Assembly: GCF_030384885.1 (NCBI RefSeq)
Contig: NZ_CP128613.1
Source: Escherichia coli
GTDB taxonomy: Bacteria > Pseudomonadota > Gammaproteobacteria > Enterobacterales > Enterobacteriaceae
Direction: 5' to 3' (one strand)
Length of the DNA: 64,000 nucleotides
The position numbers and the translations under genes were made by a program. Shown piece by piece: positions 1 through 23,143 of the stretch; position 1 is the stretch's first letter, and the number at the start of each line of letters is the position of its first letter. A model generated the notes under the pieces. The model ran no database searches. It was not told where the DNA came from and saw nothing but the letters and a program-made list of their open reading frames with translations.

Positions 1-301
1 CTTTAATCTGCTGCAATGCCACTGCGTCCTGGCTTTTGGGGGAGAAGTCTTTCAGGCCAAGCTGCTTACGATAGGAATCCCACCAACGGGAAAGAAGCTG
101 GTAGCGCCCGGCTGCTGTTGATTTGAGTTTTGGGTTTAGCGTGACAAGTTTGCGAGGGTGATCGGAGTAATCAGTAAATAGCTCTCCGCCTACAATGACG
201 TCATAACCATGATTTCTGGTTTTCTGCCGTCCGTTATCCGTTCCTTCTGACCATGCCACCATATCGAGGAAAGCTTTACGCTGAGGATTAAGATTTTGCA
301 T
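1..301 (-). CDS. Phage endolysin, lambda R-like lytic transglycosylase; N-terminal ~100 aa only, gene runs off the window start
   Basis: Reverse-strand translation from ATG at ~301 gives MQNLNPQRKAFLDMVAWSEGTDNGRQKTRNHGYDVIVGGELFTDYSDHPRKLVTLNPKLKS..., matching my recollection of lambda R; start overlaps the holin stop. Confidence 0.75.
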   Translation of the reverse strand, partial: MQNLNPQRKAFLDMVAWSEGTDNGRQKTRNHGYDVIVGGELFTDYSDHPRKLVTLNPKLKSTAAGRYQLLSRWWDSYRKQLGLKDFSPKSQDAVALQQIK

Positions 302-605
302 TTTTCACCCCTGTCAGTCGTTCCCAGAAGTACGTCAGTGCAACCGAACCCATCGCACCACTAATCCCCGCTGTCGCGAGAATCATGTAAATACTGAATC
401 CACTTTCGATGCTGATCAGGCCACCAATAACACCGGTGAATCCTGATACCACTATCTGAGCCAGAGCATTTATCCAACTCCACGTTGCTTTACTCTGCTT
501 CACATCTATCAGGTAGCGGACTAGACCGCCCCAACCTGCGATGATCAGCAAAACGAGCCAGAACGCTCCGGCAAGGCTCTCTTTTTCGTGCATATGAATA
601 GCCAA
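288..605 (-). CDS. Phage holin (105 aa, three predicted TM segments), directly upstream of the endolysin
   Basis: Small hydrophobic protein with charged C-terminus; position between Q-like gene and endolysin (Q-S-R order). Confidence 0.6.
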   Translation of the reverse strand: MAIHMHEKESLAGAFWLVLLIIAGWGGLVRYLIDVKQSKATWSWINALAQIVVSGFTGVIGGLISIESGFSIYMILATAGISGAMGSVALTYFWERLTGVKNAKS

Positions 606-914
606 TGTTTCGCCGCCGACAAAAGGCCGGGACGTTAAATGTCAGAAATCAGGCTCACGGGGTAATTTAACGACAAAGCACGGAGTTGATGCTCCCCGCA
701 AGCCTGGAATAAAAAAGCCAGCATGTAGCTGGCAACAGAGGGTTAAGCAATATCAACTCAACAGCTGAAGACACCCTGGCTGGGGTACATTGGAAGGATA
801 CTCACCGCCCAGAAACAGAAAAGCCCAAGGCTTTAAACCTCGAGCTTGAATTTGGATTACTGCCAGTGCGTACAACATTGGCAAAATATCAGATTTATAT
901 GAAATATATGCTTT

Positions 915-1604
915 TTAATCCAGTTTTGCAATATTTTGCTGTGAAAATGTCGCCTTTTGTTTTGAACGTGTTCTCGTTAGAAGCAATAAAGCTTCGCTAT
1001 CAAGCTGTAGAAAAATGTGCTTCATTGCAACCCAGCGTTCAGTGAATGTCTCAGACCAGTTTTTTGATGTCACTCCCACCAGTGACGCCAGTTCCTGGTA
1101 TTCATAAGCCTCACGCCCTGCCAGTTCGCTCTTCACATCCTGTGCCGCCAGCCAGATCAACTTCTTCAGGCGTTCCAGTGTCTTACCTGCAATTTTTCTG
1201 GTACCCAACAGAGTCTTAAACTCGCTCCATGCCCACTGCGTTATGGCAACCTGATGCTCCCAGCGAATATTTTCACTGTAACTCCACAGCAACCATGCTT
1301 TCTGATGCTCATCGAGAGACAGAACAGCGCGGCGCCATGAAGAGGTTGAAAACTCGACCGGACTGATCAGGGCGACAGATGAACCTTTTGCGTACGACTG
1401 TTTACCGGAAATCGGCAGATTATCCAGCATAATAATCTTGCCAGTTACCTCATCCAGAATGCGTCGCTTCTTTCGTTTGTATGTACCAGTATCAAATTGT
1501 GCATGCTCCAGCCAGGCTTCAAGCTGGCCTTTCGTTGCTCCGCTCAAGTCAGCGGTAGCCACCATGAGTTGCTCGCGGACATATTGTAAATATTGGGTAT
1601 TCAT
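915..1604 (-). CDS. Putative late-gene antiterminator (Q-like), 229 aa
   Basis: Position between rusA and the holin/endolysin cassette, with ~310 bp non-coding spacer before the holin; no motif-level confirmation. Confidence 0.4.
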   Translation of the reverse strand: MNTQYLQYVREQLMVATADLSGATKGQLEAWLEHAQFDTGTYKRKKRRILDEVTGKIIMLDNLPISGKQSYAKGSSVALISPVEFSTSSWRRAVLSLDEHQKAWLLWSYSENIRWEHQVAITQWAWSEFKTLLGTRKIAGKTLERLKKLIWLAAQDVKSELAGREAYEYQELASLVGVTSKNWSETFTERWVAMKHIFLQLDSEALLLLTRTRSKQKATFSQQNIAKLD

Positions 1605-1737
1605 GCGGCAGCTCCTTTCAGTGTTTTGGCGTAATTCCTCAGTATTCGGTAATCGGTCAAAACAGAACCGGGGAAACGATATAAGCGCAGATGCCCCCAG
1701 CGGTGGCGAAGAAGTTCTGCCATATAAAACTCAAACA

Positions 1738-2100
1738 TCATTCATTCCCCATTTCGGTGATGGTCAGTTCCAGCCTCCCACCTTTGGTAACAGGCATCTT
1801 CACAACACGGTAATCAACGACCTGAGCATCATCCAGCCAGAAACCTGCTTTAGTGAGTGCGTCAAAAGCGGCTTTTTGCAGATTATCCAGGTCACGGCGA
1901 CGGCGATCCGGCATGTGGCACTCAATGCGGATTTTCACAGGCATAGCCAGGCCGATATCCAGCATTGCGTTTTTAATGATTCGGGCGACGTTATCGCGGT
2001 ATGCCTGCCCCTCTGCGCTGACGTGCGTGCGCCCGCGATTATGGCGGTAATAGCGATTATTGCTCGGAGGCCAGGGTAATGTGATGCTGTAGGTATTCAC
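1738..2100 (-). CDS. rusA: Holliday-junction resolvase RusA
   Basis: 120 aa starting [23 protein letters not shown], matching my recollection of prophage RusA; stop/start overlap with upstream gene. Confidence 0.85.
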
Positions 2101-2387
2101 GCCTTAATAACCCCCTCTTTCAGCCAGATAACCTGTGTTCTCGCCATACCTTCCAGCGCGCATTCTTTTGCATATGCAGCATCGACAAAATGTGTGCGGC
2201 GGTCGATTTCGTCGTGGCAGGCAGAACATGCAATGGTGGCAATCAGGTCTGGCGGTTTGGTACCGGTGCCGCACAATCCAGTCAGCCGGATATGTGCCAG
2301 TACAGACGTTTCAGGGTTGCCATTACATACGCCAGGGATTCTTACCTGGCATTCCCGACTACGCGCTGCTTTTCTCAAATCAGCCAT
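2097..2387 (-). CDS. ybcO: YbcO-like prophage protein (DUF1364, Cys-rich putative nuclease)
   Basis: ORF 2097..2426; likely start at [23 protein letters not shown]...; conserved CxxC/H pattern; lies just upstream of rusA as in DLP12-type prophages. Confidence 0.65.
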
Positions 2388-2549
2388 GATTCCTCCTTGC
2401 TGCCAGTCGCAACCATTTTTTATCAACCAGGCTGGCGGTATATCCGAGCAGTGTTGGTATTTCGGAAGGCTTCAGCTCCGGTTTACGCTTACGACGATTT
2501 GGTACTCTGTAGATGTGTCCGTTCATGACACGAATAAGCGGTGTAGCCA

Positions 2550-2831
2550 TTACGCCTCCTGTTTGTCGCGGAGCTGCTGGAACTCGCAGCTCTGCGGAAT
2601 AGTCAGGTGGCAGCCAATATTCATCGCCCAGGCTTCAACCTTACACAGGAAGACATACATCTCTCCGGTATCAAGATCGGAGGTATGGCGTAACGACTGG
2701 ATAGTGGTGATATCACCGGTTACGACATCAACCAGGTCTTTGGTTTCATAACCGAGATATGTGTGTTTGAGAGCATCTTTTACCCAAGCTGGAGTGGCGA
2801 ACGTTTTACAGGCAACACGCAAAGACCCCAC
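2550..2831 (-). CDS. Hypothetical prophage protein (93 aa), possibly a fragment
   Basis: ORF only; divergent from the integrase gene across a 112-bp spacer. Confidence 0.3.
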   Translation of the reverse strand: MGSLRVACKTFATPAWVKDALKHTYLGYETKDLVDVVTGDITTIQSLRHTSDLDTGEMYVFLCKVEAWAMNIGCHLTIPQSCEFQQLRDKQEA

Positions 2832-2942
2832 TAAACCAAAATCTCCTTACCTCACAACGCGACAAGCCTGCATTGCGGCGCTTCAGTCTCCGCTGCATAC
2901 TATCAAGGTGAGCGCGGGTGATGGCATAACAGAGGAAAGAAA

Positions 2943-4106
2943 ATGTCACTCTTCCGCAGAAGTGAAATATGGTACGCCAGTTTCACATTGCCGAACGGTA
3001 AAAGATTTAAACAGTCTCTTGGAACAAAGGACAAAAGGCAGGCGACAGAGCTCCATGACAAGCTAAAGGCTGAAGCATGGCGGGTCAGCAAACTTGGTGA
3101 AATACCTGATATGACGTTTGAGGAAGCGTGTGTCAGGTGGCTCGAAGAGAAAGCACATAAGAAATCACTGGACGATGACAAAAGCCGGATCGGATTCTGG
3201 CTTCAACATTTCGCAGGGATGCAACTAAGAGACATCACTGAATCAAAAATTTATTCAGCGATGCAGAAAATGACAAACCGGCGTCATGAGGAAAACTGGA
3301 AACTCAGGGCAGAAGCATGCAGAAAAAAAGGGAAACCTGTTCCAGAATACACGCCAAAACCAGCGTCCGTTGCAACGAAGGCTACGCATCTTTCATTTAT
3401 AAAGGCCCTGCTAAGAGCCGCAGAGCGTGAATGGAAAATGCTGGATAAGGCACCAATTATTAAAGTGCCTCAACCGAAGAATAAACGTATCCGCTGGCTG
3501 GAGCCTCATGAAGCACAAAGGCTGATTGATGAATGTCCGGAGCCATTAAAGTCTGTTGTTGAATTTGCACTGGCAACAGGCTTAAGACGCTCGAACATCA
3601 TCAACCTTGAATGGCAACAAATAGACATGCAGCGCCGGGTGGCATGGATAAACCCGGAAGAGAGTAAATCAAACCGCGCAATTGGCGTTGCGCTGAATGA
3701 TACTGCATGTCGCGTATTGAAAAAACAAATCGGGAATCATCACCGTTGGGTATTTGTATACAAGGAAAGCTGTACCAAACCAGACGGAACGAAAGCGCCA
3801 ACGGTCAGGAAGATGCGGTATGACGCAAACACAGCCTGGAAAGCGGCGCTGAGACGAGCAGGTATTGATGATTTCAGATTTCACGACTTGAGACACACCT
3901 GGGCAAGTTGGCTGGTTCAAGCCGGAGTCCCGTTGTCAGTGTTACAGGAAATGGGAGGCTGGGAGTCTATCGAAATGGTTCGTCGATATGCTCACCTCGC
4001 ACCTAATCACCTTACCGAACATGCACGGCAAATAGACTCGATCCTGAACCCATCGGTCCCAAATTTGTCCCAGTCAAAAAATAAGGAAGGTACTAATGAT
4101 GTGTAA
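2943..4106 (+). CDS. int: Tyrosine site-specific integrase (lambdoid/DLP12-type), ends 14 bp from the tRNA-Thr 3' end
   Basis: 387 aa with C-terminal R...HDLRHTWAS...Y catalytic signature ([40 protein letters not shown]); adjacent to tRNA 3' end. Confidence 0.9.
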
Positions 4107-4120
4107 CTTATTGATTTAAA

Positions 4121-4196
4121 TGGTGCCGATAATAGGAGTCGAACCTACGACCTTCGCATTACGAATGCGCTGCTCTACCAACTGAGCTATATCGGC
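4121..4196 (-). tRNA. thrW: tRNA-Thr (anticodon CGU)
   Basis: Reverse complement reads GCCGATATAGCTCAGTTGGTAGAGCAGCGCATTCGTAATGCGAAGGTCGTAGGTTCGACTCCTATTATCGGCACCA, a full cloverleaf with CCA. Confidence 0.9.
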
Positions 4197-4310
4197 CCTG
4201 AAAGGACATGTTCACGAGCGTGAATCACGGTGGACAAGGTTAAAACTAACCGGGCGATGCGTCAATGGCCTTGTGAATCAAATGGCTACTTTTGCATCAC
4301 CCGGTTTTAT

Positions 4311-5564
4311 TTACGCACGAATGGTGTAATCACCAATGCCGATCCACTTGTAAGTGGTCAGTGCTTCCAGCCCCATTGGGCCACGCGCGTGGAGTTTTTG
4401 TGTGCTTACCGCCACTTCCGCACCCAGACCAAACTGGCCGCCGTCGGTAAAACGCGTAGAGGCGTTAACGTAAACAGCGGACGAATCCACTTCGTTAACA
4501 AAACGCTGGGCATTACGCATATCGCGGGTCAGGATCGCATCGGAGTGTTGCGTACCGTGTTCACGAATATGGGCGATGGCATCGTCAAGATCGCTGACGA
4601 TTTTGACGTTCAAGTCTAATGACAGGAACTCATCGTCATACTCTTCGGCTTTAACAGCCACCACCTTCGCGGGGCCTGCCTGCAACTGCGCCAGCGCAGT
4701 TGCGTCAGCGTGTAATGTCACGCAGCTTTCCGCCATTTGCTTGCTTAATGCGGGCAGGAAGCTATCTGCGATGTTTTTATTTACCAGCAACGTTTCTACC
4801 GTATTACACGTGCTCGGGCGCTGAGTTTTCGCGTTGACAATCACTTTCAATGCTTCAGCGATCTCTGCACTTTCATCAACGTAAATATGGCATACGCCTA
4901 TACCACCTGTGATTACCGGAATCGTCGACTGTTCGCGGCACAGTTTATGCAACCCAGCCCCGCCGCGTGGGATCAGCATGTCGATGTATTTATCCATACG
5001 CAGCAGTTCACTGACCAGCGCACGGTCAGGATTATCAATCGCCTGCACGGCACCCGCCGGTAAACCGCAGGATTTCAGGGCGTCCTGAATCACCGCCACC
5101 GTTGCAGCGTTAGTGCGACAGGTTTCTTTGCCGCCGCGCAGGATCACCGCGTTACCGGTTTTCAGGCACAGTGAAGCAACATCAACCGTCACGTTCGGGC
5201 GCGCTTCATAAATTACACCAATCACCCCCAGCGGTACGCGACGGCGTTCCAGACGCAGGCCGCTGTCCAGCACCCCGCCATCAATTACCTGCCCCACTGG
5301 ATCGGCGAGGTTACATACCTGGCGCACATCATCGGCAATGCTTTTCAGCCGTGCGGGCGTCAGTGCCAGGCGGTCAAGCATCGCTTCGCTAAGGCCATTG
5401 GCACGCGCGTCAGCAACATCCTGGGCATTAGCATTGAGGATGCTTTCGCTTTGTGCTTCCAGTTCATCGGCGATTTTTTCCAGCACGCGATTTTTTTCGC
5501 GACTGGAGAGTTGCGCTAAATTATACGAGGCTTGCTTCGCGGCAATGCCCATTTGTTCCAGCAT
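4311..5564 (-). CDS. proA: Gamma-glutamyl phosphate reductase
   Basis: 417 aa, [21 protein letters not shown]...; conserved synteny with proB. Confidence 0.95.
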
Positions 5565-5574
5565 CGGCTGCTCC

Positions 5575-6678
5575 TTAACGGGTAATCATATCATCACGGT
5601 GAACGGCAACCGGGCCGTATTCATATCCCAGTATTGCATCAATTTCTTGCGAGTGATGTCCGGCAATACGGCGTAATGCATCGCTGTTGTAACGACTGAC
5701 GCCGTGGGCGATATCGCGACCTTCAAGGTTGCAAATGCGAATGACTTCACCACGCGAGAAGTTGCCGGTTACGCTTTTAATGCCTTTCGGCAACAGGGAG
5801 CTGCCGCGTTCAAGAATGGCGGCGGTTGCCCCTTCATCTACCGTGATTTCACCCGCAGGCGGCGCACCGAAAATCCAACGTTTGCGGTTTTCAAGCGGAG
5901 TCGCCTGGGCATGGAACAGCGTACCGACGGAAATACCTTCCATCACATCACCAATGACACCCGGCTTACTGCCCGCGGCAATAATGGTGTCGATACCCGC
6001 ACGGCAAGCCACGTCAGCGGCCTGCAATTTAGTGCTCATGCCGCCGGTTCCAAGACCTGAAACGCTATCACCGGCAATCGCGCGCAGTGCGTCATCAATG
6101 CCGTACACATCTTTAATCAGTTCTGCCTGCGGATTGCTACGCGGGTCAGCGGTATACAAACCTTTTTGATCGGTCAGCAACAACAGTTTATCGGCACCTG
6201 CCAGAATCGCCGCCAGTGCCGAAAGGTTATCGTTATCGCCGACTTTAATCTCTGCAGTAGCGACAGCATCGTTCTCATTGATTACCGGAACGATGTTGTT
6301 ATCGAGCAGTGCACGCAAGGTGTCGCGGGCGTTCAGGAAGCGTTCACGGTCCTCCATATCAGCACGAGTTAGCAGCATCTGCCCGACGTGAATACCATAA
6401 ATCGAAAACAGCTGTTCCCACAGTTGAATCAGTCGACTCTGCCCTACCGCCGCCAGAAGTTGTTTCGAGGCGATAGTCGCTGGCAGTTCCGGGTAACCCA
6501 GGTGCTCACGTCCGGCGGCAATCGCACCCGACGTCACAATTACAATCCGATGCCCGGCGGCATGTAGCTGCGCACACTGGCGAACAAGTTCAACGATATG
6601 GGCACGGTTCAGGCGGCGCGATCCGCCTGTTAGCACACTGGTGCCGAGTTTTACCACCAGCGTCTGGCTGTCACTCAT
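5575..6678 (-). CDS. proB: Glutamate 5-kinase
   Basis: ORF 5575..6765; likely start [19 protein letters not shown] (367 aa) with C-terminal PUA region. Confidence 0.95.
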
Positions 6679-6866
6679 GATTCTCTGCCATTCAATTTTA
6701 GGGAAAATGATATCAAACGAACGTTTTAGCAGGACTGTCGCCGGTTGCCAACCATCTGCAAGCAAAGCATGGCGTTTTGTTGCGCGGGATCAGCAAGCGT
6801 AGCGGCAGTTGTTTACGCTTTTATTACAGATTTAATAAATTACCACATTTTAAGAATATCATTAAT

Positions 6867-6890
6867 CTGTAATATATCTTTAACAATCTC
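6867..6890 (+). promoter_or_regulatory. Candidate Pho box (PhoB binding site) upstream of phoE
   Basis: CTGTAATATATCTTTAACAATCTC about 70 bp upstream of the phoE start, resembling tandem CTGTCAT-type pho-box repeats. Confidence 0.4.
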
Positions 6891-6959
6891 AGGTTAAAAA
6901 CTTTCCTGTTTTCAACGGGGCTCTCCCGCTGAATATTCGCGCGTTAATTAAAATCAGGA

Positions 6960-8021
6960 ATGAAAATGAAAAAGAGCACTCTGGCATTAGTGGTGATGGG
7001 CATTGTGGCATCGGCATCCGTACAGGCCGCAGAAATATATAACAAAGACGGTAATAAACTGGATATCTATGGCAAAGTTAAAGCCATGCATTATATGAGC
7101 GATAATGACAGTAAAGATGGCGACCAAAGTTATATTCGTTTTGGTTTTAAAGGCGAAACACAAATTAACGATCAACTGACCGGTTATGGTCGCTGGGAAG
7201 CAGAGTTTGCCGGAAATAAAGCAGAGAGTGATACTGCTCAGCAAAAAACGCGTCTTGCCTTTGCCGGGTTGAAATATAAAGATTTGGGTTCTTTCGACTA
7301 TGGTCGTAACCTGGGGGCGCTGTATGACGTGGAAGCATGGACCGATATGTTCCCGGAATTCGGCGGCGATTCCTCCGCGCAGACCGACAACTTTATGACC
7401 AAACGCGCCAGCGGTCTGGCAACGTATCGGAACACCGACTTCTTCGGCGTTATCGATGGCCTGAACTTAACCCTGCAATATCAAGGAAAAAACGAAAACC
7501 GCGACGTTAAAAAGCAAAACGGTGATGGCTTCGGCACGTCATTGACATATGACTTTGGCGGCAGCGATTTTGCCATTAGTGGGGCCTATACCAACTCCGA
7601 TCGCACCAACGAGCAGAACCTGCAAAGCCGTGGCACGGGCAAGCGTGCAGAAGCATGGGCAACAGGCCTGAAATACGATGCCAATAATATTTACCTGGCA
7701 ACTTTCTATTCTGAAACGCGTAAAATGACGCCAATCTCTGGCGGCTTTGCCAATAAGACGCAGAACTTTGAAGCAGTCGCTCAATACCAATTCGACTTTG
7801 GCCTGCGTCCATCGCTGGGTTATGTCTTATCGAAAGGGAAAGATATTGAGGGCATCGGTGATGAGGATCTGGTCAATTATATTGATATCGGTGCTACATA
7901 TTATTTCAACAAAAATATGTCAGCGTTTGTTGATTATAAAATAAACCAACTGGACAGCGATAACAAATTAAATATTAATAATGATGATATTGTCGCGGTT
8001 GGGATGACCTATCAGTTTTAA
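6960..8021 (+). CDS. phoE: Outer membrane phosphoporin PhoE
   Basis: Signal peptide, porin beta-barrel pattern, C-terminal YQF. Confidence 0.95.
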
Positions 8022-8029
8022 TGGAGATT

Positions 8030-8050
8030 GCCGGATGCGGCGCATCCGGC
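8030..8050. terminator. GC-rich hairpin between convergent phoE and crl
   Basis: GCCGGATGCGGCGCATCCGGC perfect inverted repeat followed by a T-run. Confidence 0.6.
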
Positions 8051-8059
8051 ACTTTTCAC

Positions 8060-8518
<459 letters not shown>

Positions 8519-9763
8519 TTAACACAATCGTTTTTCGATCCAGCTCGTGATTTCCTGAAGACCTTTGTCAAAATTCCGATACACGGGGTTAAACGGAATC
8601 TCTAACAATTTACCATCAGCAGATGATGAGGTGATTAAGCGAGAGTCCTCTTCCGGGCTGAACGGATCGTTCTTCCAATAGCCTGATAACATTGGCGTTG
8701 GGCAGCGACGGCCCAGCAATCCTTGCACTTTTAATGAATAACGATTCAGTTCCACACGCAACGCTTCATCGGAAGCATCATGCATCCCCAAACGACTCGC
8801 CAGAACGTCAAGATACATTTCCGGCACCTGTTGCTGGCACTTAAAATCACTCAACAGGGTATGAACTACCGGACCAAGACAGGCAACCGCTTTCAGACGC
8901 GGCGATTCAAGATATGCCAGACGCACAGCAACGTTAGCGCCAAAACGGAAACCAAAGGCCGCGACACGGGTGTGATCCACCCACGGGACGTTAGGCAGCG
9001 CCTTTAAGACGTGCTGATGCAACAGGCTGGAGTCCTGGGTGAGCTTCCATTTTGAAGAAAAGCCCACCGACGGCATATCAATAGTCAGCATCGCAATGCC
9101 GCGCGGGGCAAAATAACGTTCATACAGACTGTAATAATCCGTCTGCATCGCATCCAGACCACCACACATTAATACCGTCGGGAACGGGCCATCGCCTTTC
9201 GGCATATGCAAAAAGCCGGTGATGGGCGCACCGCCTGGTACGGTAAACTCCATCTGCCGCATCGTGCCCGGCAGACGTTGGGCGGCCTCTTCATAGGCAC
9301 GGTTTGACAAAGCCTGCGCTTGCTCGGCCAGGTCATCCCCTTTCAGATGAGGATAGGCGGCAATGTTGTACAACGTGGCCGCATGCAGCCAGTGACGACC
9401 ACTGAGTTGTGGATCTTCTTCCGCACAAGCTTTTTGTTGCCACACCATCGCCTGGGTGGCCCATTCATAAATCCAGTTGCCGCCGCGGTAGCCAATCACC
9501 GTATCGTATAAATCATCGTCGGTACGTTCAGCATCGCTCATCACAATACGCGCCTGAACGTCGAGGATTTCACGTGGGTCAATGCCGCGCCAGATCCACA
9601 TCAGACGGTTTATCATGCGATACCAGTGGGGGATGGTTTTACCATCAAGGGCCGACTGCACAGGCGGTTGTGCGCCGTGATTAAAGCGGCGGACTAGCGT
9701 CGAGGTTTCAGGATGTTTAAAGCGGGGTTTGAACAGGGTTTCGCTCAGGTTTGCCTGTGTCAT
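8519..9763 (-). CDS. frsA: Esterase FrsA (alpha/beta hydrolase)
   Basis: 414 aa; synteny crl-frsA-gpt. Confidence 0.9.
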
Positions 9764-9854
9764 GGATGCAGCCTCCAGAATACTTACTGGAAACTATTGT
9801 AACCTGCCTGAAGTTAAAAAGAACAACGCCCGGCAGTGCCAGGCGTTGAAAAGA

Positions 9855-10313
9855 TTAGCGACCGGAGATTGGCGGGACGAATACGACGCCCATATCCCAC
9901 GGTTGTTCAATCCAGGTATCTTGTGGGATATCAACAACATAATCATCAACCAGCGGACGACCTGCCGGTTTAGCGAAGATGGTGACAAAGTGCGCTTTTG
10001 GATACATTTCACGAATCGCAACTGCAGTACCGCCGGTATCCACCAGATCATCAATAACGATGAAGCCTTCGCCATCGCCTTCTGCGCGTTTCAGCACTTT
10101 AAGCTCGCGCTGGTTGTCGTGATCGTAGCTGGAAATACAAACGGTATCGACATGACGAATACCCAGTTCACGCGCCAGTAACGCACCCGGTACCAGACCG
10201 CCACGGCTTACGGCAATAATGCCTTTCCATTGTTCAGAAGGCATCAGTCGGCTTGCGAGTTTACGTGCATGGATCTGCAACATGTCCCAGGTGACGATGT
10301 ATTTTTCGCTCAT
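9855..10313 (-). CDS. gpt: Xanthine-guanine phosphoribosyltransferase
   Basis: 152 aa, [51 protein letters not shown]... Confidence 0.95.
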
Positions 10314-10573
10314 GTGAAGTGTCCCAGCCTGTTTATCTACGGCTTAAAAAGTGTTCGAGGGGAAAATAGGTTGCGCGAGATTATAGAGATCTGACGCACT
10401 AAAAACCAGTATTTCACATGAGTCCGCGTCTTTTTACGCACAGCCTCTCCCTGACGCGGGATAAAGTGGTATTCTCAAACATATCTCGCAAGCCTGTCTT
10501 GTGTTGACAACATTTTCTGCTAACCCTGTGACCTGCAATACTGTTTTGCGGGTGATCGACAAGGAGACTTAAC

Positions 10574-12031
10574 GTGTCTGAACTGTCTCAATTATCTCCA
10601 CAGCCGCTGTGGGATATTTTTGCCAAAATCTGTTCTATTCCTCACCCGTCCTATCATGAAGAGCAACTCGCTGAATACATTGTTGGTTGGGCAAAAGAGA
10701 AAGGTTTCCATGTCGAACGCGATCAGGTGGGTAATATCCTGATTCGTAAACCTGCTACCGCAGGTATGGAAAATCGTAAACCAGTCGTCTTGCAGGCCCA
10801 CCTCGATATGGTGCCGCAGAAAAATAACGATACCGTGCACGATTTCACTAAAGATCCTATCCAGCCTTATATTGATGGCGAATGGGTTAAAGCGCGCGGT
10901 ACCACGCTGGGCGCGGATAACGGCATTGGTATGGCCTCTGCACTGGCGGTTCTGGCTGACGAAAACGTGGTTCACGGCCCGCTGGAAGTGCTGCTAACCA
11001 TGACCGAAGAAGCCGGTATGGACGGGGCGTTCGGCTTACAGAGCAACTGGTTACAGGCTGACATTCTGATTAACACCGACTCCGAAGAAGAAGGTGAAAT
11101 CTACATGGGTTGTGCTGGGGGTATCGACTTCACCTCCAACCTGCATTTAGATCGTGAAGCCGTTCCGGCTGGTTTTGAAACCTTCAAATTAACCTTAAAA
11201 GGTCTGAAAGGCGGTCACTCCGGCGGTGAAATCCACGTTGGCCTGGGTAACGCGAACAAACTGCTGGTGCGCTTCCTTGCGGGACATGCAGAAGAACTGG
11301 ACCTGCGTCTTATCGATTTCAACGGCGGCACACTGCGTAACGCCATCCCGCGTGAAGCCTTTGCGACCATTGCTGTCGCAGCTGATAAAGTCGACGCGCT
11401 GAAAACGCTGGTGAATACCTATCAGGACATCCTGAAAAACGAGCTGGCAGAGAAAGAGAAAAATCTGGCCTTGTTGCTGGACTCTGTTGCGAACGATAAA
11501 GCTGCCCTGATTGCGAAATCTCGCGATACCTTTATTCGTCTGTTGAACGCCACCCCTAACGGTGTGATCCGCAACTCCGACGTAGCAAAAGGCGTGGTTG
11601 AAACCTCACTGAACGTCGGTGTCGTGACCATGACCGACAACAACGTAGAAATTCACTGCCTGATCCGTTCTCTGATCGACAGCGGTAAAGACTACGTGGT
11701 GAGCATGCTGGATTCGCTGGGTAAACTGGCAGGCGCGAAAACCGAAGCGAAAGGCGCATATCCTGGCTGGCAGCCGGACGCTAATTCTCCGGTGATGCAT
11801 CTGGTACGTGAAACCTATCAGCGCCTGTTCAACAAGACGCCGAACATCCAGATTATTCACGCGGGCCTGGAATGTGGTCTGTTCAAAAAACCGTATCCGG
11901 AAATGGACATGGTTTCTATCGGGCCAACCATCACCGGTCCACACTCTCCGGATGAGCAAGTTCACATCGAAAGCGTAGGCCATTACTGGACACTGCTGAC
12001 AGAACTGCTGAAAGAAATTCCGGCGAAGTAA
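10574..12031 (+). CDS. pepD: Cytosol non-specific dipeptidase PepD (GTG start)
   Basis: 485 aa M20-family peptidase, MSELSQLSPQPLWDIFAKICSIPHPSYHEEQ... Confidence 0.95.
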   Translation: MSELSQLSPQPLWDIFAKICSIPHPSYHEEQLAEYIVGWAKEKGFHVERDQVGNILIRKPATAGMENRKPVVLQAHLDMVPQKNNDTVHDFTKDPIQPYIDGEWVKARGTTLGADNGIGMASALAVLADENVVHGPLEVLLTMTEEAGMDGAFGLQSNWLQADILINTDSEEEGEIYMGCAGGIDFTSNLHLDREAVPAGFETFKLTLKGLKGGHSGGEIHVGLGNANKLLVRFLAGHAEELDLRLIDFNGGTLRNAIPREAFATIAVAADKVDALKTLVNTYQDILKNELAEKEKNLALLLDSVANDKAALIAKSRDTFIRLLNATPNGVIRNSDVAKGVVETSLNVGVVTMTDNNVEIHCLIRSLIDSGKDYVVSMLDSLGKLAGAKTEAKGAYPGWQPDANSPVMHLVRETYQRLFNKTPNIQIIHAGLECGLFKKPYPEMDMVSIGPTITGPHSPDEQVHIESVGHYWTLLTELLKEIPAK

Positions 12032-12041
12032 TTACAATAAT

Positions 12042-12063
12042 GTCCACGCCTGCGGGCGTGGAC
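12042..12063. terminator. Perfect hairpin immediately after pepD
   Basis: GTCCACGCCTGCGGGCGTGGAC inverted repeat starting 11 bp after the stop. Confidence 0.6.
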
Positions 12064-12329
12064 TACTGTTTGAAGCCAATGGCTATCTATATCGAAATAA
12101 CAAAACATTATGAAACTCATGAAAAGGTCGCATATTTATATAGCTGCGACCATATTTCATGGGGAGAATTTCTGATCACCAAAGAAAGTTTTGCGCTGGA
12201 ATCCGTGAAAGAACTTAAGGGTGAAAAGCAGAATTTTTATATGTTCAGAGCCTGGGGCAAAGTCAGGAAAACATACTTAGCCACGGGAGAATTTCCCCAG
12301 GAAACATGTTACGCCGCTTAAAGTCAGAA

Positions 12330-12869
12330 TCATTTTTTCACGCGTTTTACATTTACCATTTTAGCATTACGCCTGCACCACATGGCAATGGCGGCAGCTA
12401 CTAATGCCAGTTCCAGTAAAAACGACCAGTGTAATAAAAAATTGAGCCACCACGGATGATGTACCGCCGTAATATGAAAGAGTGCAAAGGGTTGGTTAAC
12501 GAAAGGCATCAACCACCAGATATCACCGACCAGCGTATCAAGCAACAAATGCACAATACCATTCAGGCAAAACACCACGCCCAGCCACGCCGGAAGTTTA
12601 TTCTTCGCAATTGCGGCCCAGACTAATGTCGCCGCCAGCAGAGCAAACCATAATAATGGCCAATGAGACGGGTAAAGATGATGATGTCGTTGCCCGTTAT
12701 CCACCAGATAACACCAGAAGAGATCAAAATCGGGTGCAACGGCCCCGACTAAGCCAATAACCATCGCCCACCGCGCATGACGAGAAATCAGCGGTAGGCG
12801 TTTCACTAAAGTACAAGTTATTAAATATCCAGCCGGAAGATGACCGATAAACATGACGAATCCTTTCAT
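12330..12869 (-). CDS. Putative membrane-bound metal-dependent hydrolase-like protein (His-rich, multi-TM; YdjM/DUF457-like), distal gene of the rtcB-prfH unit
   Basis: 179 aa with HHHLYPSHW and HITAVHHPWW motifs in hydrophobic context; begins 48 bp after the prfH stop on the same strand. Confidence 0.45.
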   Translation of the reverse strand: MKGFVMFIGHLPAGYLITCTLVKRLPLISRHARWAMVIGLVGAVAPDFDLFWCYLVDNGQRHHHLYPSHWPLLWFALLAATLVWAAIAKNKLPAWLGVVFCLNGIVHLLLDTLVGDIWWLMPFVNQPFALFHITAVHHPWWLNFLLHWSFLLELALVAAAIAMWCRRNAKMVNVKRVKK

Positions 12870-12916
12870 TTTTGCCCGCCGCTTTCACGAAGAAAACGGC
12901 GGGTGACATTCCTCTA

Positions 12917-13531
12917 TTACACAGCGATAAAAGCCATCCCTGTAAACGTCCGTCGCGGGTTGCCACGTTCAATCTGGTGATGGAACATTCGCCGCTGCGA
13001 TTTCAGCGCCGCGCTATTTTCCTGTCGCTGTTGTTCCAGCTTCCAGGCAATCAGTAATCGCGCCAGCCGTTTGTTAGCATGCTGGCTGCGCTCTGACTGA
13101 ACCTTCACGCTAATCCCGGATGCCAGATGCGTGGCGCGTACCGCCGAGTCGGTTTTATTGACATGTTGACCGCCCGGCCCCGACGAACGCAGCGTCTCAT
13201 AATGGATCGCATCGGATTGCTCCTGCTCATCTGAAGTAAAACGCCCAATGCCCAGAAACCAGTTTTTGCGCCCATGATGAGGGCGATACGGACTCGGACA
13301 AATCCACTGGATAGTGCCACACCAGCTTTCGCTTAGTGCCCATGCGTTGTCGCCATCAAGTGAAACCAGCGCCGAACGCAGTGTGTCAGAGTAGCGACCC
13401 GTTTCTGTTTCCAGCACCGTTACCGCGACGTCTTGTCGGGCAGCTTCTTTAATCAGCCTGTCCAGTGCCTTTTTCACTGCGAGACAACATTCTTCCGGCC
13501 CCTGAGCTGAGGAGAGTTGTAGCAAGATCAT
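12917..13531 (-). CDS. prfH: Peptide chain release factor homologue PrfH (full-length, GGQ motif present)
   Basis: ORF 12917..13615; likely start [16 protein letters not shown] (204 aa) overlapping the rtcB stop (ATGA); contains [16 protein letters not shown]. Confidence 0.9.
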
Positions 13532-14667
13532 CCTTTTTTCCCTCCACTGTTTTTGAGCGTCAGCACCGGACGCAGTCGCGCGACAGGAATAATTAAACCG
13601 GCCTGCACCAGACATTGCACCACACTTTCAGCCGATTTATAGGCTTGTGGCGCTTCTTCAAAGATGAGTTGTTTATCGCGACAAATTACCCGACTGCCAA
13701 GTTCAGTACGTGAGAGTTGCGTCGCCGTGTGTTTCGCTGCCAGACGCCCTTTACACTCGGTGCGCCCCCATTTACGCCCTGCCCCATGCGCCAGCGAGTG
13801 GAGCGTTTTTTCGTTCGCAACAGGCTTAACCAGCCAGGAGTAATCACCGCGTGAACCGGGAATAATCACCAGACCGTTGTCATCCGGCGTAGCCCCTTTA
13901 CGGTGTAACCATCCTTGTTGATCGCCGATTCGACATGCGCTAACAAAGTTATGCGCCACATCCAGAACCGAATTTCCGTTGGCCTTAACTTGTTGCATTA
14001 TGCGCAAAGCGATCAGCTGGCGATTAATACGCGCAAACGCCAGCGCATCGTCATGTTCCGCAATATACCGTAGCGCGTCGTCACTGCCTTGAGGCAAACC
14101 ATGATGCGAAAACGAGGCAATATGCCGCTGTAAAATAGACTGCCCCAGCCCCCTCGAGCCGCTATGAACCAGCAGTTGCAGATGCTGCGCATCCAGACCT
14201 GCCAGTGCAAACAGTTCCGCGTCGATGATTTGATCAACTTTTTGCAGTTCTGCGAAGTGGTTTCCGCCACCGATAGAGCCAAGCGCGCAGCGCCACGGAT
14301 GCTGTGCAAACGCTGACGGCAGGTTTTCCTCCAGCCAGCTTTCTTCAGCAACGTCATCCAGCGCAGATAATCGCTTTTCAAACTTATCGGCGTTGTATTT
14401 ACGCGCGAGAATATCTGTTTGCCATAGCGCCATGCCGCAGCCGATATCATTGCCGACCAGTGCCGGGTAAAAACGGCCTACGGAGAAGAACGCTGCGCCA
14501 ATCGGATAGCCGCGTCCGGGGTGTAAATCTGGCATCCCTACTACGCGTTGCATGTCGGGTAAATTTGCCGAGGTGTGTAATTGTTGGATCGCTGAACTCT
14601 CGATCCACAGGTCATCAGATGCGATGGTAAATACCGCATCGGATAAGGGACGAATATATTTGCCCAT
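13528..14667 (-). CDS. rtcB: RtcB-family RNA ligase paralogue (RtcB2), full length
   Basis: 379 aa with His/Cys metal-ligand pattern (GNDIGCGMA...NHF...HSGSRG...HNF); translationally coupled to prfH. Confidence 0.85.
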
Positions 14668-14984
14668 GTATCATTCCATTTATACTCGTCATACTTCAAG
14701 TTGCATGTACTGCGACTGCGTTCGTTCACCCCAGTCACTTACTTTAGTAAGCTCCTGGGGATTCACTCGCTTGTCGCCTTCCTGCAACTCGAATTATTTA
14801 GAGTATATAAATATAAAAATCAAGAAATGGCAGACGAATCCAGGGCAAGAAAAAAAGAATTAATCCTGGAAAGGTCTGCAAAGAGTCATTGATAAAGGAT
14901 TTTTCATGATTTACCTCCTTGCAGTTTGTGGAATAAGAAAACGCGCACATATTAGGCGGGCGTTATTTTCATTGCAAGCTGGAT

Positions 14985-15437
14985 TTAGTGTTGCGGTTTA
15001 TATCGCATATGAAAATTAGTAAACCACGCTCCCCGGCATTCAACGCGCTGCTGCTTAACTGTCTGAAAACCATAACGTTCAAAAAAGGGTTTTGCGGTTA
15101 TGCTGGCATCTACCGTAAGTTCGGATTCAGACTTAATCAAAGGTTTTAACAAAGCGCTGGCAACCCCGCAGCGGTTGTATTTCGGATCAACAAATAACAT
15201 ATCGATATAATGCTCAATGCAGGTAATAAAGCCGACCAGTTGTGTATTAATAACCGCAACCCGCACTTGTGATTTCGCGAGTTTCTCTTTCCATCGATGT
15301 TCATCAATCTGCGCCCAGGCGGCAATTTGTTGTGGTGAATAATGCTGACTAGCGGTCATCGTAACCGCTCTAATAAAAATAGCGCATAGTTGCTGAAAAT
15401 CGCCAGGCTGATAGTTCCTTATTTGTATATTATTCAT
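14985..15437 (-). CDS. yafP: GNAT-family N-acetyltransferase YafP
   Basis: 150 aa, [17 protein letters not shown]...; 4-nt overlap with the dinB stop. Confidence 0.85.
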
Positions 15438-16489
15438 AATCCCAGCACCAGTTGTCTTTCCATTTGCGGATCAAGCAACGTCACATGCAGCCCCACCAGT
15501 CGCACACCGCGCCCGCCACGGCGTTCATCCCAGGTTTTACGCGCAGTGGCGATCAAGTCAGCTTTATTCAGCCGCGGCCAGACGTGTTCCTGGGTGGTTT
15601 GCTGAAAATCGTCGAACTTTAATTTCACCCCCTGGCGGGCAATCAGTAAATCAGGTTTTACCTTTGCCAGACGACGTTCAAGTTCCGGGTACAACCGCTC
15701 GATGATCGCTTCACATTCAGACCAGTGATGAATATCTTCCGCCATCGTGCGTTCTACACCGACGGATTTTCGCAACCTTTCGCTGTTAACGTCGCGCTCG
15801 TCAATGCCCTGACTACGCTCCCACAAAATGCGGCCAAATTTGCCAAAGCGTTTAAGCAATGTCACCAGATCACACTTTTGTACATCGCCGCAGGTTCGTA
15901 GCCCCATCGCTTCCAGTTTTGCCGCCGAGACTTTGCCGACACCGGGAATTTTTGCCAGCGGTAAGGTTTGCAGAAATGCCGGAACTTCTGCTGGCGTAAT
16001 CACAAACTGACCGTTGGGTTTATTCATGTCTGAGGCGATTTTGGCGAGAAACTTGACCGGCGCAACGCCCGCAGACGCCGTCAGTTGCAGCTCGTTGAAG
16101 ATCGTCTGGCGGATTTCCTGAGCGATAAGGGTCGCAGAGCCGTGGCAATGGACACTATCGGTGACGTCGAGATAGGCTTCATCCAGTGACAGCGGCTCAA
16201 TACGCGATGTGTAGCGAGAGAAGATTTCGCGGATATGATTTGACGCTTCTTTGTAGGCGTCAAAGCGCCCTGGAAGCAAGGTGAGATGCGGACACAGTTT
16301 GAGCGCCATGCCGGTTGGCATTGCGCTACGCACGCCAAATTTACGCGCAGGATAATTGGCGGTGCTGATCACCCCCCGGCGTTCGCGGCTGCCGCCAATA
16401 GCAATAGGGATATCGCGCAGGGCGGGATTGTCGCGCATCTCCACCGCGGCGAAAAAGCAGTCCATATCCACATGAATGATTTTACGCAT
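15434..16489 (-). CDS. dinB: DNA polymerase IV (Y-family translesion polymerase)
   Basis: 351 aa, [33 protein letters not shown]... Confidence 0.95.
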
Positions 16490-16505
16490 TGCTCACCTCT
16501 CAATA

Positions 16506-16521
16506 CTGGTAAAGTATACAG
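16506..16521. promoter_or_regulatory. LexA (SOS) box upstream of dinB
   Basis: CTGGTAAAGTATACAG, i.e. CTG-N10-CAG palindrome, 17 bp upstream of the dinB start codon. Confidence 0.75.
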
Positions 16522-16559
16522 TGATTTCAGAGTTTGAGAAATGCGTAAAGATTCAGCAT

Positions 16560-17138
16560 TTAACGCGTTCGCTGCGAAAGCACCTGCTGCTTATCCAGCT
16601 TTTTCACCAACGGCTGCACCACTTTATCGCCATGCTGACCAAAATATTGATACAACGTATCGGACGCGCTTTTGGTGAGCACCATAATCTCAATGCGCCG
16701 ATTGCCCGCGCTTTGTGGATTTTTGGCATCCAGCAGCATCTGGTCCGCCATTGCGCTCACCCGCGCTTCGCCCTGTAACACCGGCTGCAACTGGCGGTCC
16801 ACCGCGCCGCCGGAAAGTGCGGTGCGTTTGTCCAGCATCTGCGTGAGCGCCGTACCCTGCGCCTGCCCGCTCTTACGCTGGCTATGACGATAATCGAGCA
16901 ATTGCTGCTCCAGTTGCCCGAGATAGTGATCCGCCTGCTGCAACGTGGTGAGCTGATCGTTAAGCTGCACGCTGTAACGCTGCGGGCGAGTGGTAATCAG
17001 CGGCGAGGCCGGATATTCACTCGCCGTCGCCGGGAGCTTTTGCCGCACCGCCTGAGTGGGCGCAACGGTTGACGACGATACCGCAGCGCTATGCGCGCCG
17101 CCGGTGGCGAGTGATGAAGATGTAAGTCCGACCTGCAT
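16560..17138 (-). pseudogene. lafU: Remnant of lateral-flagellar MotB-like gene (lafU); only the C-terminal OmpA-like tail is recognisable
   Basis: 192-aa ORF ending ...AKNPQSAGNRRIEIMVL (OmpA/MotB tail) but N-terminal region low-complexity with no TM anchor; sits between lfgL and dinB where the laf cluster would be. Confidence 0.4.
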
Positions 17139-17154
17139 ACTGTTCCTGAAAGAG

Positions 17155-18108
17155 TTAGAGAACGCTGAACAAATTCAACTCACTCACCTTCGAGTAAGTC
17201 TTGAGGGTAGCTTCCATTGCCACTTCCAGTCCGGTAAAGGTGATCGACGCCGGGCCGTAATCGAGATCCTGCAATGAACCAATCAACTCATCATTAGAGG
17301 TAGAGATATCGGTCTGCGCATCGCTCAGCATCGACATGGTGTTTTGTGTCTCGCCGAGCGACGCAATCGAGGCGTTGAGGTCGTCCGAGGCGGTGTCCAC
17401 CACATTAACGGCGTTTTGAATATCGCTTTGTACCTGCGGATCTGCCGGGTCAACGTTAGGGTTTTGCAACTCCTGCGACAGGGCATTGAGCGTGTTGAGC
17501 ACATCTAAATTGCTGCCAAAGAAATCGCTCGCCGCCACGTTGGTGTCTACTTCGACGCCGTTCGACACCGTAGTCTGGCGATGGTCGCTGTTACCCTGAT
17601 AGCTGTAGCGATCGGTCACGCCATCACCGTCATCGTCCACCGCCACAATCGGCGGTTGATCGTTGATAGTGCCGCCAAAGACGTAATGCCCGTCTTCATC
17701 CTGATAGTTGAGCGCCGCCACCATCGATTCGGTTAGCGACTCAATATCCTGACCGAGGCTTGCCAGCGAATCGGCGGTATTGGTGCCGTTCGCTGCTTCC
17801 AGCAGGTCGTCGCGCACCGCCAGCAGGCTGTTGTTGACGCCATCAAGAATGGATTCCTGCTGGCTTAAGCCCGCCGACGCGGAGTCGATATTGCTCTGAT
17901 ACTGCTCAATCGCCGACTGCTGGCGGTTCAACTGGGTGATACGTGTGGCGGCGATAGGATCATCCGATGGCTGCAAAATTTCCTTGCCGGTTGCCATCTG
18001 CTCGACCACGTGCGCCAGTTCGCCAGAAAGATTATTAAAACTTTGCGTCATCGAGACGTAGGTTTGTTGGGTGGTTACTCGCATTTTCGCGCTCCCGCTT
18101 AGCTGCAC
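17155..18108 (-). CDS. lfgL: Flagellar hook-associated protein 3 (FlgL homologue), Flag-2
   Basis: 317 aa, flagellin-like N/C termini; follows lfgK. Confidence 0.8.
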   Translation of the reverse strand: MQLSGSAKMRVTTQQTYVSMTQSFNNLSGELAHVVEQMATGKEILQPSDDPIAATRITQLNRQQSAIEQYQSNIDSASAGLSQQESILDGVNNSLLAVRDDLLEAANGTNTADSLASLGQDIESLTESMVAALNYQDEDGHYVFGGTINDQPPIVAVDDDGDGVTDRYSYQGNSDHRQTTVSNGVEVDTNVAASDFFGSNLDVLNTLNALSQELQNPNVDPADPQVQSDIQNAVNVVDTASDDLNASIASLGETQNTMSMLSDAQTDISTSNDELIGSLQDLDYGPASITFTGLEVAMEATLKTYSKVSELNLFSVL

Positions 18109-19475: not shown

Positions 19476-19544
19476 GTTGGATCCTTACCGGTAAATCGTG
19501 CCGGATAAAAGCGGCGTGAAGTTGGGGATTCTTAAGTTCCGTAA

Positions 19545-19885
<341 letters not shown>

Positions 19886-19896
19886 ACGTCGGAGCC

Positions 19897-20196
19897 TCAT
19901 TTATGCTTCGGCGACAACTGCTTCACAATCATCGCCGCGATCCCTATCCCGTGCTGCTGCGCCAGGGTGTTACACAACTCATCGTCATAAAACCCCTGCA
20001 TCATGCGCACCGAATCGCTGTTAAATGGGTTATCTTTCGAATCAAACAACTCGTTGGTTTTACGCATCTCTTTCAGCATGTTGCGTAAAAAAATCGCCTC
20101 AAACTGTTCGGCGGCCTGCTTAATATCATTGGCCTGAACCTTCGGCCCCATTAACGCATCGCTGCCGTCAATCCCGCCGCTGGCGTTGACTTTCAT
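19897..20196 (-). CDS. lfgJ: FlgJ-like rod-binding protein (N-terminal domain only, no muramidase domain), Flag-2
   Basis: 99 aa, ...AAEQFEAIFLRNMLKEMRKT...; position after flgI. Confidence 0.75.
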   Translation of the reverse strand: MKVNASGGIDGSDALMGPKVQANDIKQAAEQFEAIFLRNMLKEMRKTNELFDSKDNPFNSDSVRMMQGFYDDELCNTLAQQHGIGIAAMIVKQLSPKHK

Positions 20197-21976: not shown

Positions 21977-22042
21977 GTTCTGCCTGTTTAGTGTTGCAGG
22001 CCACGGGGTGGCCGGTTGTTTGGTGGGTTGGAGCGGGTTTGT

Positions 22043-22158
22043 TCCCCCTCACCCTAACCCTCTCCCCAAAGGGGCGAGGGGACCGATCGAGCGCGTTTTT
22101 ACATCGTGCTCCACTTTTCTCCCTCTCCCTGTGGGAGAGGGCCGGGGTGAGGGCATCA
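22043..22158. repeat. GC-rich composite palindromic element (boxC/RSA-like), copy 1
   Basis: CCCTCACCCTAACCCTCTCCCCAAAGGGGCGAGGGG ... CTCCCTCTCCCTGTGGGAGAGGGCCGGGGTGAGGG; same family as 29281-29393 (inverted) and 48941-48985. Confidence 0.7.
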
Positions 22159-22179
22159 GGCCGCACCGCCCTTAACGCC

Positions 22180-22968: not shown

Positions 22969-23000
22969 GGTAAATTCCGTGTTATTTTGGGGCCGCGGTT

Positions 23001-23143
<143 letters not shown>

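Follow-up and report, generated by a model that had tools for sequence, protein, structure and literature searches.

The first 4,196 nucleotides of the window (the whole stretch of Escherichia coli DNA that was analysed, 64,000 nucleotides of contig NZ_CP128613.1) place a phage integrase gene next to nin, Q and lysis genes, which raises the question of what kind of element this is and which of its functions survive. As the initial annotation had proposed, and essentially rightly to judge from the sequence, positions 1-4196 belong to a defective lambdoid prophage and form its attL end, next to thrW. Very probably this segment is the attL-proximal third of a remnant of about 13.3 kb. The features run as follows from the tRNA gene toward the window start; L003, L014 and L015 are contigs of other assemblies whose overlaps with the window or with one another are 100% identical.

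4121-4196, minus strand: thrW, tRNA-Thr(CGU) (ARAGORN; Rfam RF00005; synteny with proA/proB/phoE)
4105-4166, no strand: attL core, 62 bp, composed of 16 bp on the phage side and the 3' 46 nt of thrW; second copy in L014 and L015
2943-4106, plus strand: tyrosine integrase (int), 387 aa, intact (PF00589, E 5.3e-48)
2810-3066, plus strand: 3' remnant of xis, 86 codons, overlapping the int start; 97% identical to SfII Xis residues 59-144
2807-2809, no strand: deletion junction with a 3-bp TAC microhomology (three-way alignment)
2550-2809, minus strand: 3' remnant of ybcN (phage 82 orf151, NinB-like), the last ~85 of 151 codons (alignments to MB15 and PSS-08-2)
2380-2550, minus strand: ninE, 56 aa (PF05322, E 5.6e-5, slightly under the gathering score; NinE in relatives, orf56 in phage 82)
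2097-2387, minus strand: ybcO (DUF1364, putative nuclease), 96 aa (PF07102, E 2.5e-41; limits from RefSeq relatives)
1738-2100, minus strand: rusA, Holliday-junction resolvase, 120 aa, full length (PF05866, E 6.9e-23; colinear with phage 82 rus)
1601-1741, minus strand: ylcG (orf45 of phage 82), 46 aa (YlcG in relatives; PF26818 on the identical L003 gene)
915-1604, minus strand: late antiterminator Q, Q82 family, 229 aa, full length (PF06323, E 1.4e-94)
903-931, minus strand: pR'-like late promoter, TTGCAA, 17-nt spacer, TATATT, overlapping the Q stop codon (consensus match only)
717-733, minus strand: tR'-like intrinsic terminator, GCCAGC-TACAT-GCTGGC then T6, between Q and holin (consensus scan)
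288-593, minus strand: holin, LydA-type, 101 aa (105 aa from TTG at 605) (PF16083 Phage_holin_3_3, E 8.2e-22)
1-301, minus strand: endolysin (lambda R-type lytic transglycosylase), 5' 100 codons, running past the window start (translation)

The integration site is thrW, since proA, proB and phoE come after the tRNA-Thr(CGU) gene; the tRNA is the sole match in an Rfam scan of 1-4196. The int stop codon lies 14 nt from the 3' end of the tRNA gene, in agreement with the earlier statement that the two abut. The integrase protein is 100% identical to Int of Shigella phage SfII, 97.9% to that of SfV and 90% to those of P22-like phages, and the locus has the form of a thrW integration module with a SfII/SfV/P22-type tyrosine recombinase directly beside the att site. 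On the strand opposite int the order is the ybcN remnant, ninE, ybcO, rusA, ylcG, Q, the pR'-like and tR'-like elements, holin and the start of the endolysin gene. The YbcO-like, RusA, Q-like, holin and endolysin genes that had been named were all recovered with Pfam or PDB matches, but the neighbour within about 100 bp of int is not ybcO, whose start is about 556 bp off; the nearest gene is the ybcN remnant, followed by ninE. The small gene ylcG (1601-1741) was missing from the earlier gene list.

Both ybcN and xis are cut mid-gene at the junction. The triplet TAC is common to the ybcN side (…GTTTTAC followed by CCTTGC) and the xis side (…CCGCCTAC followed by AGGCAAC), and in all complete genomes the match to the left flank ends at 2807/2809 while that to the right flank begins at 2807. 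In strain MB15 both flanks sit in one intact thrW prophage, where 11,203 bp containing 22 annotated genes separate them; the resulting deletion size of 11.2 kb is relative to this one reference, lambdoid phages being mosaic. The ybcN remnant is called as a 93-aa fusion ORF with a GTG start at 2831 within xis-antisense sequence, and the junction is real, not an assembly artefact, because this fusion ORF recurs in 11 independent contigs. Eight of these 11 public contigs were compared with the window, which they match at 99.98-100% identity. The junction is absent from all 5,426 complete E. coli genomes searched, and an exact-pattern scan of GTDB species-representative genomes returned 0 matches. 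The ybcN remnant has no Pfam match, and a domain search with the xis remnant ORF found no domain. The colinearity of both flanks with the MB15 prophage and the base-precise junction uphold the proposal that a lambdoid prophage at thrW lost its early region by a large internal deletion.

The ancestor would have been a temperate phage of about 40 kb and of the SfII/SfV type. Its integrase, of the P22/SfII class, would have directed it to thrW; its nin/Q module would have been of the phage-82 type and its R/Rz/Rz1 lysis set of the lambda type, and its head and tail HK97-like and Mu-like, respectively. One illegitimate recombination event at the TAC microhomology then very probably joined mid-ybcN to mid-xis, removing about 11.2 kb. 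The lost genes would include the rest of the nin region, the replication genes (O/P-like, ren), the repressor/cro region with the early promoters, kil, gam, bet, exo, small accessory genes and the DNA-binding N terminus of Xis. The initial annotation had counted xis among the missing early genes; the early region is indeed missing, but xis is truncated, its 3' 86 codons remaining at 2810-3066. HTH_17, which lies at residues 6-36 of the intact MB15 Xis, is deleted with the N-terminal ~30 residues that carry it, and no functional HTH excisionase is present upstream of int.

The part of the remnant to the left of the window was read from other assemblies, which are identical over the overlap (up to 12.8 kb), and the source genome may differ there. 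Leftward extension, which the initial annotation had proposed as a check, shows that the sequence continues in these contigs with Rz/Rz1, bor, terminase, tail remnants and attR, and then with yagU and ecp. A single 77-kb contig, L014, spans int, attR and yagU/ecp, whereas L003 and L015 belong to a different assembly. A search between int and attR in the identical assemblies found no early region, the finding that had been named as one that would refute a deletion. The direct repeat of the tRNA 3' end that had been expected is absent from the window; attR would lie outside it to the left, where the identical assemblies L014 and L015 have a perfect 62-bp copy about 9.1 kb from the window start, giving an att repeat period of 13,255 bp. 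In MB15 the second att copy is 56 bp with one mismatch. Two further deletion junctions join portal to tape measure and the DNA-circularization protein to pinE. No IS elements were seen in the remnant, which has decayed by three clean microhomology deletions. Immunity and replication functions are absent and phage genes are truncated at rearrangement junctions, as in a defective prophage. The attR-proximal cargo in the identical assemblies is a DUF6602 gene; gtrA-gtrB-gtr(type) genes are found neither in the window nor beside the att site in those assemblies, where DUF6602 stands.

Other origins for the juxtaposition of int and late genes have to be weighed against a deletion. The window starts within the prophage and the left part is not directly visible, as a circular permutation or an assembly artefact with the early region beyond the window start would require, but the probability of either is close to nil: different samples gave 11 contigs, each assembled independently, that carry the junction, and the single 77-kb contig passes from int through attR into chromosomal genes without an early region. 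A phage satellite (PICI-like), compact by design, would account for the 13.3-kb size, the intact integrase at a tRNA site and the terminase genes. It is extremely unlikely, as the called genes of the complete element include no repressor, AlpA/Xis function or primase/replication module, its boundaries are all truncated genes (ybcN, xis, portal, tape measure and the DNA-circularization gene fused to pinE) and a full phage genome is colinear with the entire element at ~97%. Recombination between two prophages, either tandem thrW lysogens or an old int-only remnant and a newcomer, is improbable, even though the best matches of the flanks differ (left, 99.7% to the PSS-08-2 prophage, which has a P22-like capsid and lies at another locus, and 97.4% to MB15; right, 99.9% to strains E41 and MB06171) and lambdoid phages are typically mosaic. 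Against it, one thrW prophage in MB15 (and in ET358) is colinear with the two flanks as well as with the downstream structural genes, at 96.7-99.7% identity, the join is 3 bp of microhomology between opposite-strand genes with no shared homologous segment, and in the identical assemblies one attL/attR pair only bounds the element. Circular permutation, assembly artefact and satellite/PICI origin were rejected, as was serotype-converting (gtr) cargo.

In the late control and lysis part of the remnant, the ORFs from ninE through Rz1 are all full length. Q is identical to phage 82 Q at 213 of 229 residues (93%) over the full length, and PF06323 is the Q82 family (PMC9388147). A sequence search for solved structures of Q found none. 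The pR'-like promoter lies ~165-190 nt upstream of the tR'-like terminator, a layout like that of lambda 6S. The terminator sequence is unchanged in three full-length relatives, and the pR'-like region matches the full-length PSS-08-2 prophage exactly and phage PhiR47_2 nearly so; conservation here is judged against such full-length relatives. A second hairpin with a T-rich tail occurs at 847-821. The RefSeq annotation of relatives holds the same 306-nt holin gene. The full endolysin, 158 aa in L003, matches PDB 1AM7 (lambda lysozyme) with E 8.9e-102, and Rz and Rz1 are seen only in that identical contig. The order of nin genes, Q, promoter and terminator gap, holin, endolysin and Rz/Rz1 is that of a lambdoid late control and lysis region.

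Judged by gene content, the element is without immunity, replication or excision-directionality function, yet Int is intact and the att cores are perfect in the identical assemblies. It would be locked in the chromosome and not inducible. Q, rusA, ybcO and ninE are intact ORFs but probably silent, because the early transcription that normally reaches them has been lost. The sole putative nin-region promoter annotated in phage 82 is upstream of orf33, within the deleted interval. Since the deletion took everything known to drive Q transcription, any Q would have to arise by chance transcription or be supplied by another phage. The suggestion that a Q-dependent promoter could still drive the lysis cassette holds in part: the pR'/tR' region and the lysis ORFs are intact and the region matches that of a full-length prophage, but all that is known to drive Q is deleted. 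The late unit (pR', tR', holin, R, Rz/Rz1) would be intact in cis and would produce a short terminated transcript alone as long as no Q82-type Q is available. Such a Q could come from rare read-in of the resident gene, or act in trans from a phage with that type of Q, whether co-resident or infecting.

It is unlikely that the nin-Q-lysis block is instead an autonomous, self-activating unit, with Q expressed from a fortuitous promoter at or near the junction or by thrW/proBA read-through. The full-length ORFs from ninE to Rz1 and the intact pR'/tR' region agree with such a unit, several assemblies keep the remnant without point inactivation, and thrW and proBA are co-oriented with Q, no terminator-like hairpin being found directly after thrW. 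Q could still be driven by a weak promoter that consensus scans miss, or by transcripts that read through from the co-oriented thrW/proBA. However, minus-strand promoter-like sites upstream of Q number 3 versus 4.4 expected in shuffled sequence, ~1.3 kb of antisense-int RNA would be untranslated and open to Rho, sequence identity across assemblies reflects a recent clone and not long-term selection, and constitutive Q would be lethal given the intact holin and endolysin. A live Q-dependent module could contribute to host stress-induced autolysis or to release of eDNA in biofilms. A role in autolysis and biofilm eDNA has been proposed for the lysis genes of the K-12 prophage DLP12.

In practice the remnant is best regarded as a passive store of phage modules with which incoming lambdoid phages can recombine. 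It is very unlikely that the remnant is a retained decoy late operon, in which a phage that infects or is induced, and that has a Q82-type antiterminator, switches on the extra lysis cassette in trans. Such a decoy could bring lysis forward and cut the phage burst, a cheap effect resembling abortive infection; alternatively, the cassette could be a ready-made module passed to an incoming phage by recombination. On the same very unlikely reading, the DUF6602 gene beside attR in the identical assemblies could be retained defence cargo.

The remnant resembles several known elements. DLP12 (qsr'), a cryptic lambdoid prophage at argU in E. coli K-12, contains an integrase, a nin block, Q, holin, endolysin, Rz/Rz1, bor and terminase fragments. 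Its immunity and replication functions are absent, IS insertions and nmpC lie between Q and holin, and its rusA, which has no promoter, is silent. Both elements are defective, lie at a tRNA gene and keep an integrase and the ybcN, ninE, ybcO, rusA, ylcG, Q block, whereas DLP12 has argU, another integrase and another Q in place of thrW, the SfII-type Int and the Q82-type Q. By sequence, the locus is a case of ordinary prophage decay, comparable to DLP12. thrW is the attachment site of the serotype-converting Shigella phages SfII, SfI, SfIV and SfV. The int-xis order and Int (100% to 97.9% identical, SfII to SfV) are shared with these phages, but SfII has gtrA/B/II beside att where the identical assemblies have DUF6602, and the remnant is non-viable with a phage-82-like nin/Q module. 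The nin-Q region of phage 82 (GenBank X92588) has 95.8% DNA identity to the window over 1.9 kb and the same order of orf151 (ybcN), orf56 (ninE), orf96 (ybcO), rus, orf45 (ylcG) and Q; in the remnant orf151 is truncated, and the deletion has taken orf33 together with the putative promoter and regulator site annotated upstream in phage 82. The intact MB15 prophage (NZ_CP073984, 40.7 kb) has the same site and the same int/xis, and its nin, Q, lysis, bor, HNH, terminase and portal genes are colinear with those of the remnant (96.7-99.7% identity), but it keeps the 11.2-kb early region and the head and tail genes, and its cargo near attR is DUF262.

The locus has little importance outside annotation. 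It provides a base-precise case of a temperate phage apparently locked in the chromosome, one microhomology deletion having taken the repressor, replication, recombination and the Xis DNA-binding domain. The intact Q82-type late operon could be trans-activated by related phages or recombine with them. The three junctions are unique, being absent from the 5,426 complete E. coli genomes, and are usable as clonal markers.

On the minus strand, ARAGORN places a tRNA-Thr(CGU) gene at 4121-4196; proA, proB and phoE come after it, which identifies the site as the E. coli thrW locus. A tyrosine integrase of 387 aa is encoded at 2943-4106 on the plus strand (PF00589, E 5e-48), and 14 nt separate its stop codon from the 3' end of the tRNA. 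The genes beside it lie on the minus strand and are listed outward from int.

Minus-strand features outward from int, with the basis of each assignment
2550-2831, minus strand, ybcN remnant, a 93-aa ORF without a Pfam match
2380-2550, minus strand, ninE (Pfam profile search)
2097-2387, minus strand, ybcO (PF07102)
1738-2100, minus strand, rusA (PF05866)
1601-1741, minus strand, ylcG (comparison with relatives)
915-1604, minus strand, Q (PF06323, E 1.4e-94)
309 bp, minus strand, Q-holin intergenic region (sequence read and consensus scan)
288-593, minus strand, LydA-type holin (PF16083)
1-301, minus strand, first 100 codons of the endolysin gene (translation and match of the complete protein)

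The complete endolysin is lambda-R-like and matches PDB 1AM7 (E 9e-102). The gene calls, the tRNA and the Pfam matches bear out the initial annotation in placing int beside nin, late and lysis genes at thrW. The genes that it named are present, while the ybcN remnant, ninE, ylcG and a surviving piece of xis had been missed.

The boundary between the two gene sets is a deletion junction. When window 1-4300 was compared by megablast with 5,426 complete E. coli genomes, none covered more than 65% of it in one place, and matches to the left flank all ended at 2807 or 2809. With 2600-4300 as the query, 1,014 genomes match from 2807 on, in a region annotated "HTH protein, integrase, tRNA-Thr". In strain MB15 (NZ_CP073984), which carries an intact thrW prophage, both flanks occur within that single prophage; the left flank ends in ybcN and the right flank starts in a xis-like HTH gene, with 11,203 bp between them. 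A three-way alignment gives …GTTTTAC|CCTTGC on the ybcN side and …CCGCCTAC|AGGCAAC on the xis side, and the window reads …GTTTTAC AGGCAAC… at the join, with a 3-bp TAC microhomology at 2807-2809. The last ~85 of 151 codons of ybcN remain, as do 86 codons of xis (97% identity with residues 59-144 of SfII Xis). According to the MB15 annotation, the lost interval comprises 22 whole genes, including ren and hypothetical genes of the nin region; genes for replication proteins P and O-like, with ydaT; an HTH gene (cro/cII-like) and a repressor gene (XRE/cI-like); the kil, gam, bet and exo genes; and DUF1317, DUF1382, a TraR-like gene and DUF4222. An exact-sequence look-up found the 93-aa fusion ORF in 11 public contigs, and the eight that were fetched match the window at 99.98-100% identity across 1.4-12.8 kb.

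The content of the element to the left was read from these window-identical contigs and contigs reached from them, not from the source genome itself. The remainder of R comes first, then Rz (PF03245) with embedded Rz1 (PF06085), bor, an HNH endonuclease gene, terS and terL. Next, a truncated portal gene runs into the 3' end of the gene for the tape measure (contig L004, 9406-9407), which marks a second deletion; relative to MB15, 8.2 kb are missing there. On contig L014, a 176-aa gene at 9409-9939, for which a Pfam search gave no match, takes the place of the OB-fold gene of MB15. At a third junction (L014, 10253-10254), the first ~85 codons of a DNA-circularization protein gene are fused in frame, with a 2-bp overlap, to the C-terminal coding portion of pinE, an invertase gene, yielding an ORF of 197 aa. 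Neither of these two junctions was found in the complete RefSeq E. coli genomes searched. A 447-aa DUF6602 protein (L014, 11114-12457) adjoins attR, at the position occupied by gtr genes in SfII and a DUF262 gene in MB15; this position may be a variable slot for cargo or defence genes. In these assemblies attR repeats window 4105-4166 perfectly over 62 bp, and beyond it come yagU, ykgJ and ecp, which are chromosomal. One assembly has the whole stretch on one 77-kb contig, L014, and a second assembly (L003 and L015) concurs at 100% identity. The att repeats recur with a period of 13,255 bp, compared with 40,709 bp in MB15. An early region displaced by circular permutation would lie upstream of the window; the identical relatives can be followed as far as attR with no early region at any point of the element, so the deletion first proposed stands for them.

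At the protein level the integrase is 100% identical to that of Shigella phage SfII, 99.5-99.7% to those of SfI/SfIV, 97.9% to that of SfV and 90% to those of P22-like phages. The nin-Q block has the same gene order as the phage 82 nin-Q fragment X92588 and 95.8% DNA identity to it. Q belongs to PF06323, which is the Q82 family (PMC9388147), and shares 93% identity with Q82. Relatives carry HK97-like head and Mu-like tail genes, and this combination marks the element, on sequence, as a typical mosaic SfII/SfV-type lambdoid phage. SfII has a gtr serotype-conversion cassette next to attP whereas the remnant has no gtr genes, and a serotype-converting phage was rejected on that ground; a satellite was rejected because neither a repressor nor a replication module is present. 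The architecture closely parallels that of DLP12 (qsr'), a cryptic prophage of K-12. The two have different attachment sites, integrases and Q types, and they also decayed differently, by clean microhomology deletions in the remnant and by IS activity in DLP12. The remnant is a new allele, specific to its lineage, of a type of object that is already thoroughly known.

The Int ORF is intact and both att cores are perfect, the att pair being seen in the window-identical assemblies. Xis is generally required for excisive recombination. Its HTH_17 domain, which spans residues 6-36 in the intact protein of MB15, is missing from the remnant, and excision is not expected because this DNA-binding domain has been lost.

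In the late control region, a consensus scan detected a promoter-like site at 931-903 on the minus strand (TTGCAA, 17-nt spacer, TATATT) and a terminator with a canonical hairpin and T-tract at 733-717 (minus); a second hairpin lies at 847-821 (minus). This geometry is similar to that of the lambda pR'-6S-tR' unit. Over its entire 350 bp the region is the same as in the full-length prophage of strain PSS-08-2 and near-identical in the isolated phage PhiR47_2, and on this basis every lysis ORF and the elements in cis look functional. Q normally relies on early rightward transcription, the region for which is absent from the remnant. The only annotated putative nin-region promoter of phage 82, upstream of orf33, is also deleted, and promoter-like sites upstream of Q are not enriched (3 found, 4.4 expected). 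Both thrW and proBA have the same orientation as Q, and no terminator-like hairpin was found after thrW; read-in from thrW/proBA into Q is conceivable and would have to traverse 1.3 kb of antisense int. We consider it most likely that, unless a Q82-type Q were supplied in trans, the lysis cassette, Q and the nin genes would be silent.

Against complete E. coli genomes, the chromosomal flank (4197-24000) has only ~95% identity in most cases and 98% in the best three, and proA/proB have ~96-97% identity to MB15. The host is perhaps a member of a divergent E. coli lineage. A Flag-2 (lateral flagella) cluster at ~16500-48000 starts just past dinB (15434-16489). Here 19.8 kb of the window corresponds to 28.5 kb in E. 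coli MFDS1022581; the ~8.7 kb apparently missing is the lafU-motA-fliA-fliK-fliS-fliD-lafA part, and flgL/flgK-like ORFs follow directly. Four matches to naRNA4/REP-type repeats (Rfam RF02564; 19612-19807, 23055-23131, 39065-39141) are ordinary E. coli BIME/REP elements. A group II intron at 55003-56820 on the minus strand (Rfam RF00029 and RF01999), ~6 kb from a tRNA-Asp gene (62560-62636), encodes a reverse-transcriptase/maturase of 505 aa (55080-56597); its neighbours are an ISAs1/H-repeat-type DDE transposase gene and an RHS-repeat ORF (53735-54808 and 57756-58748).
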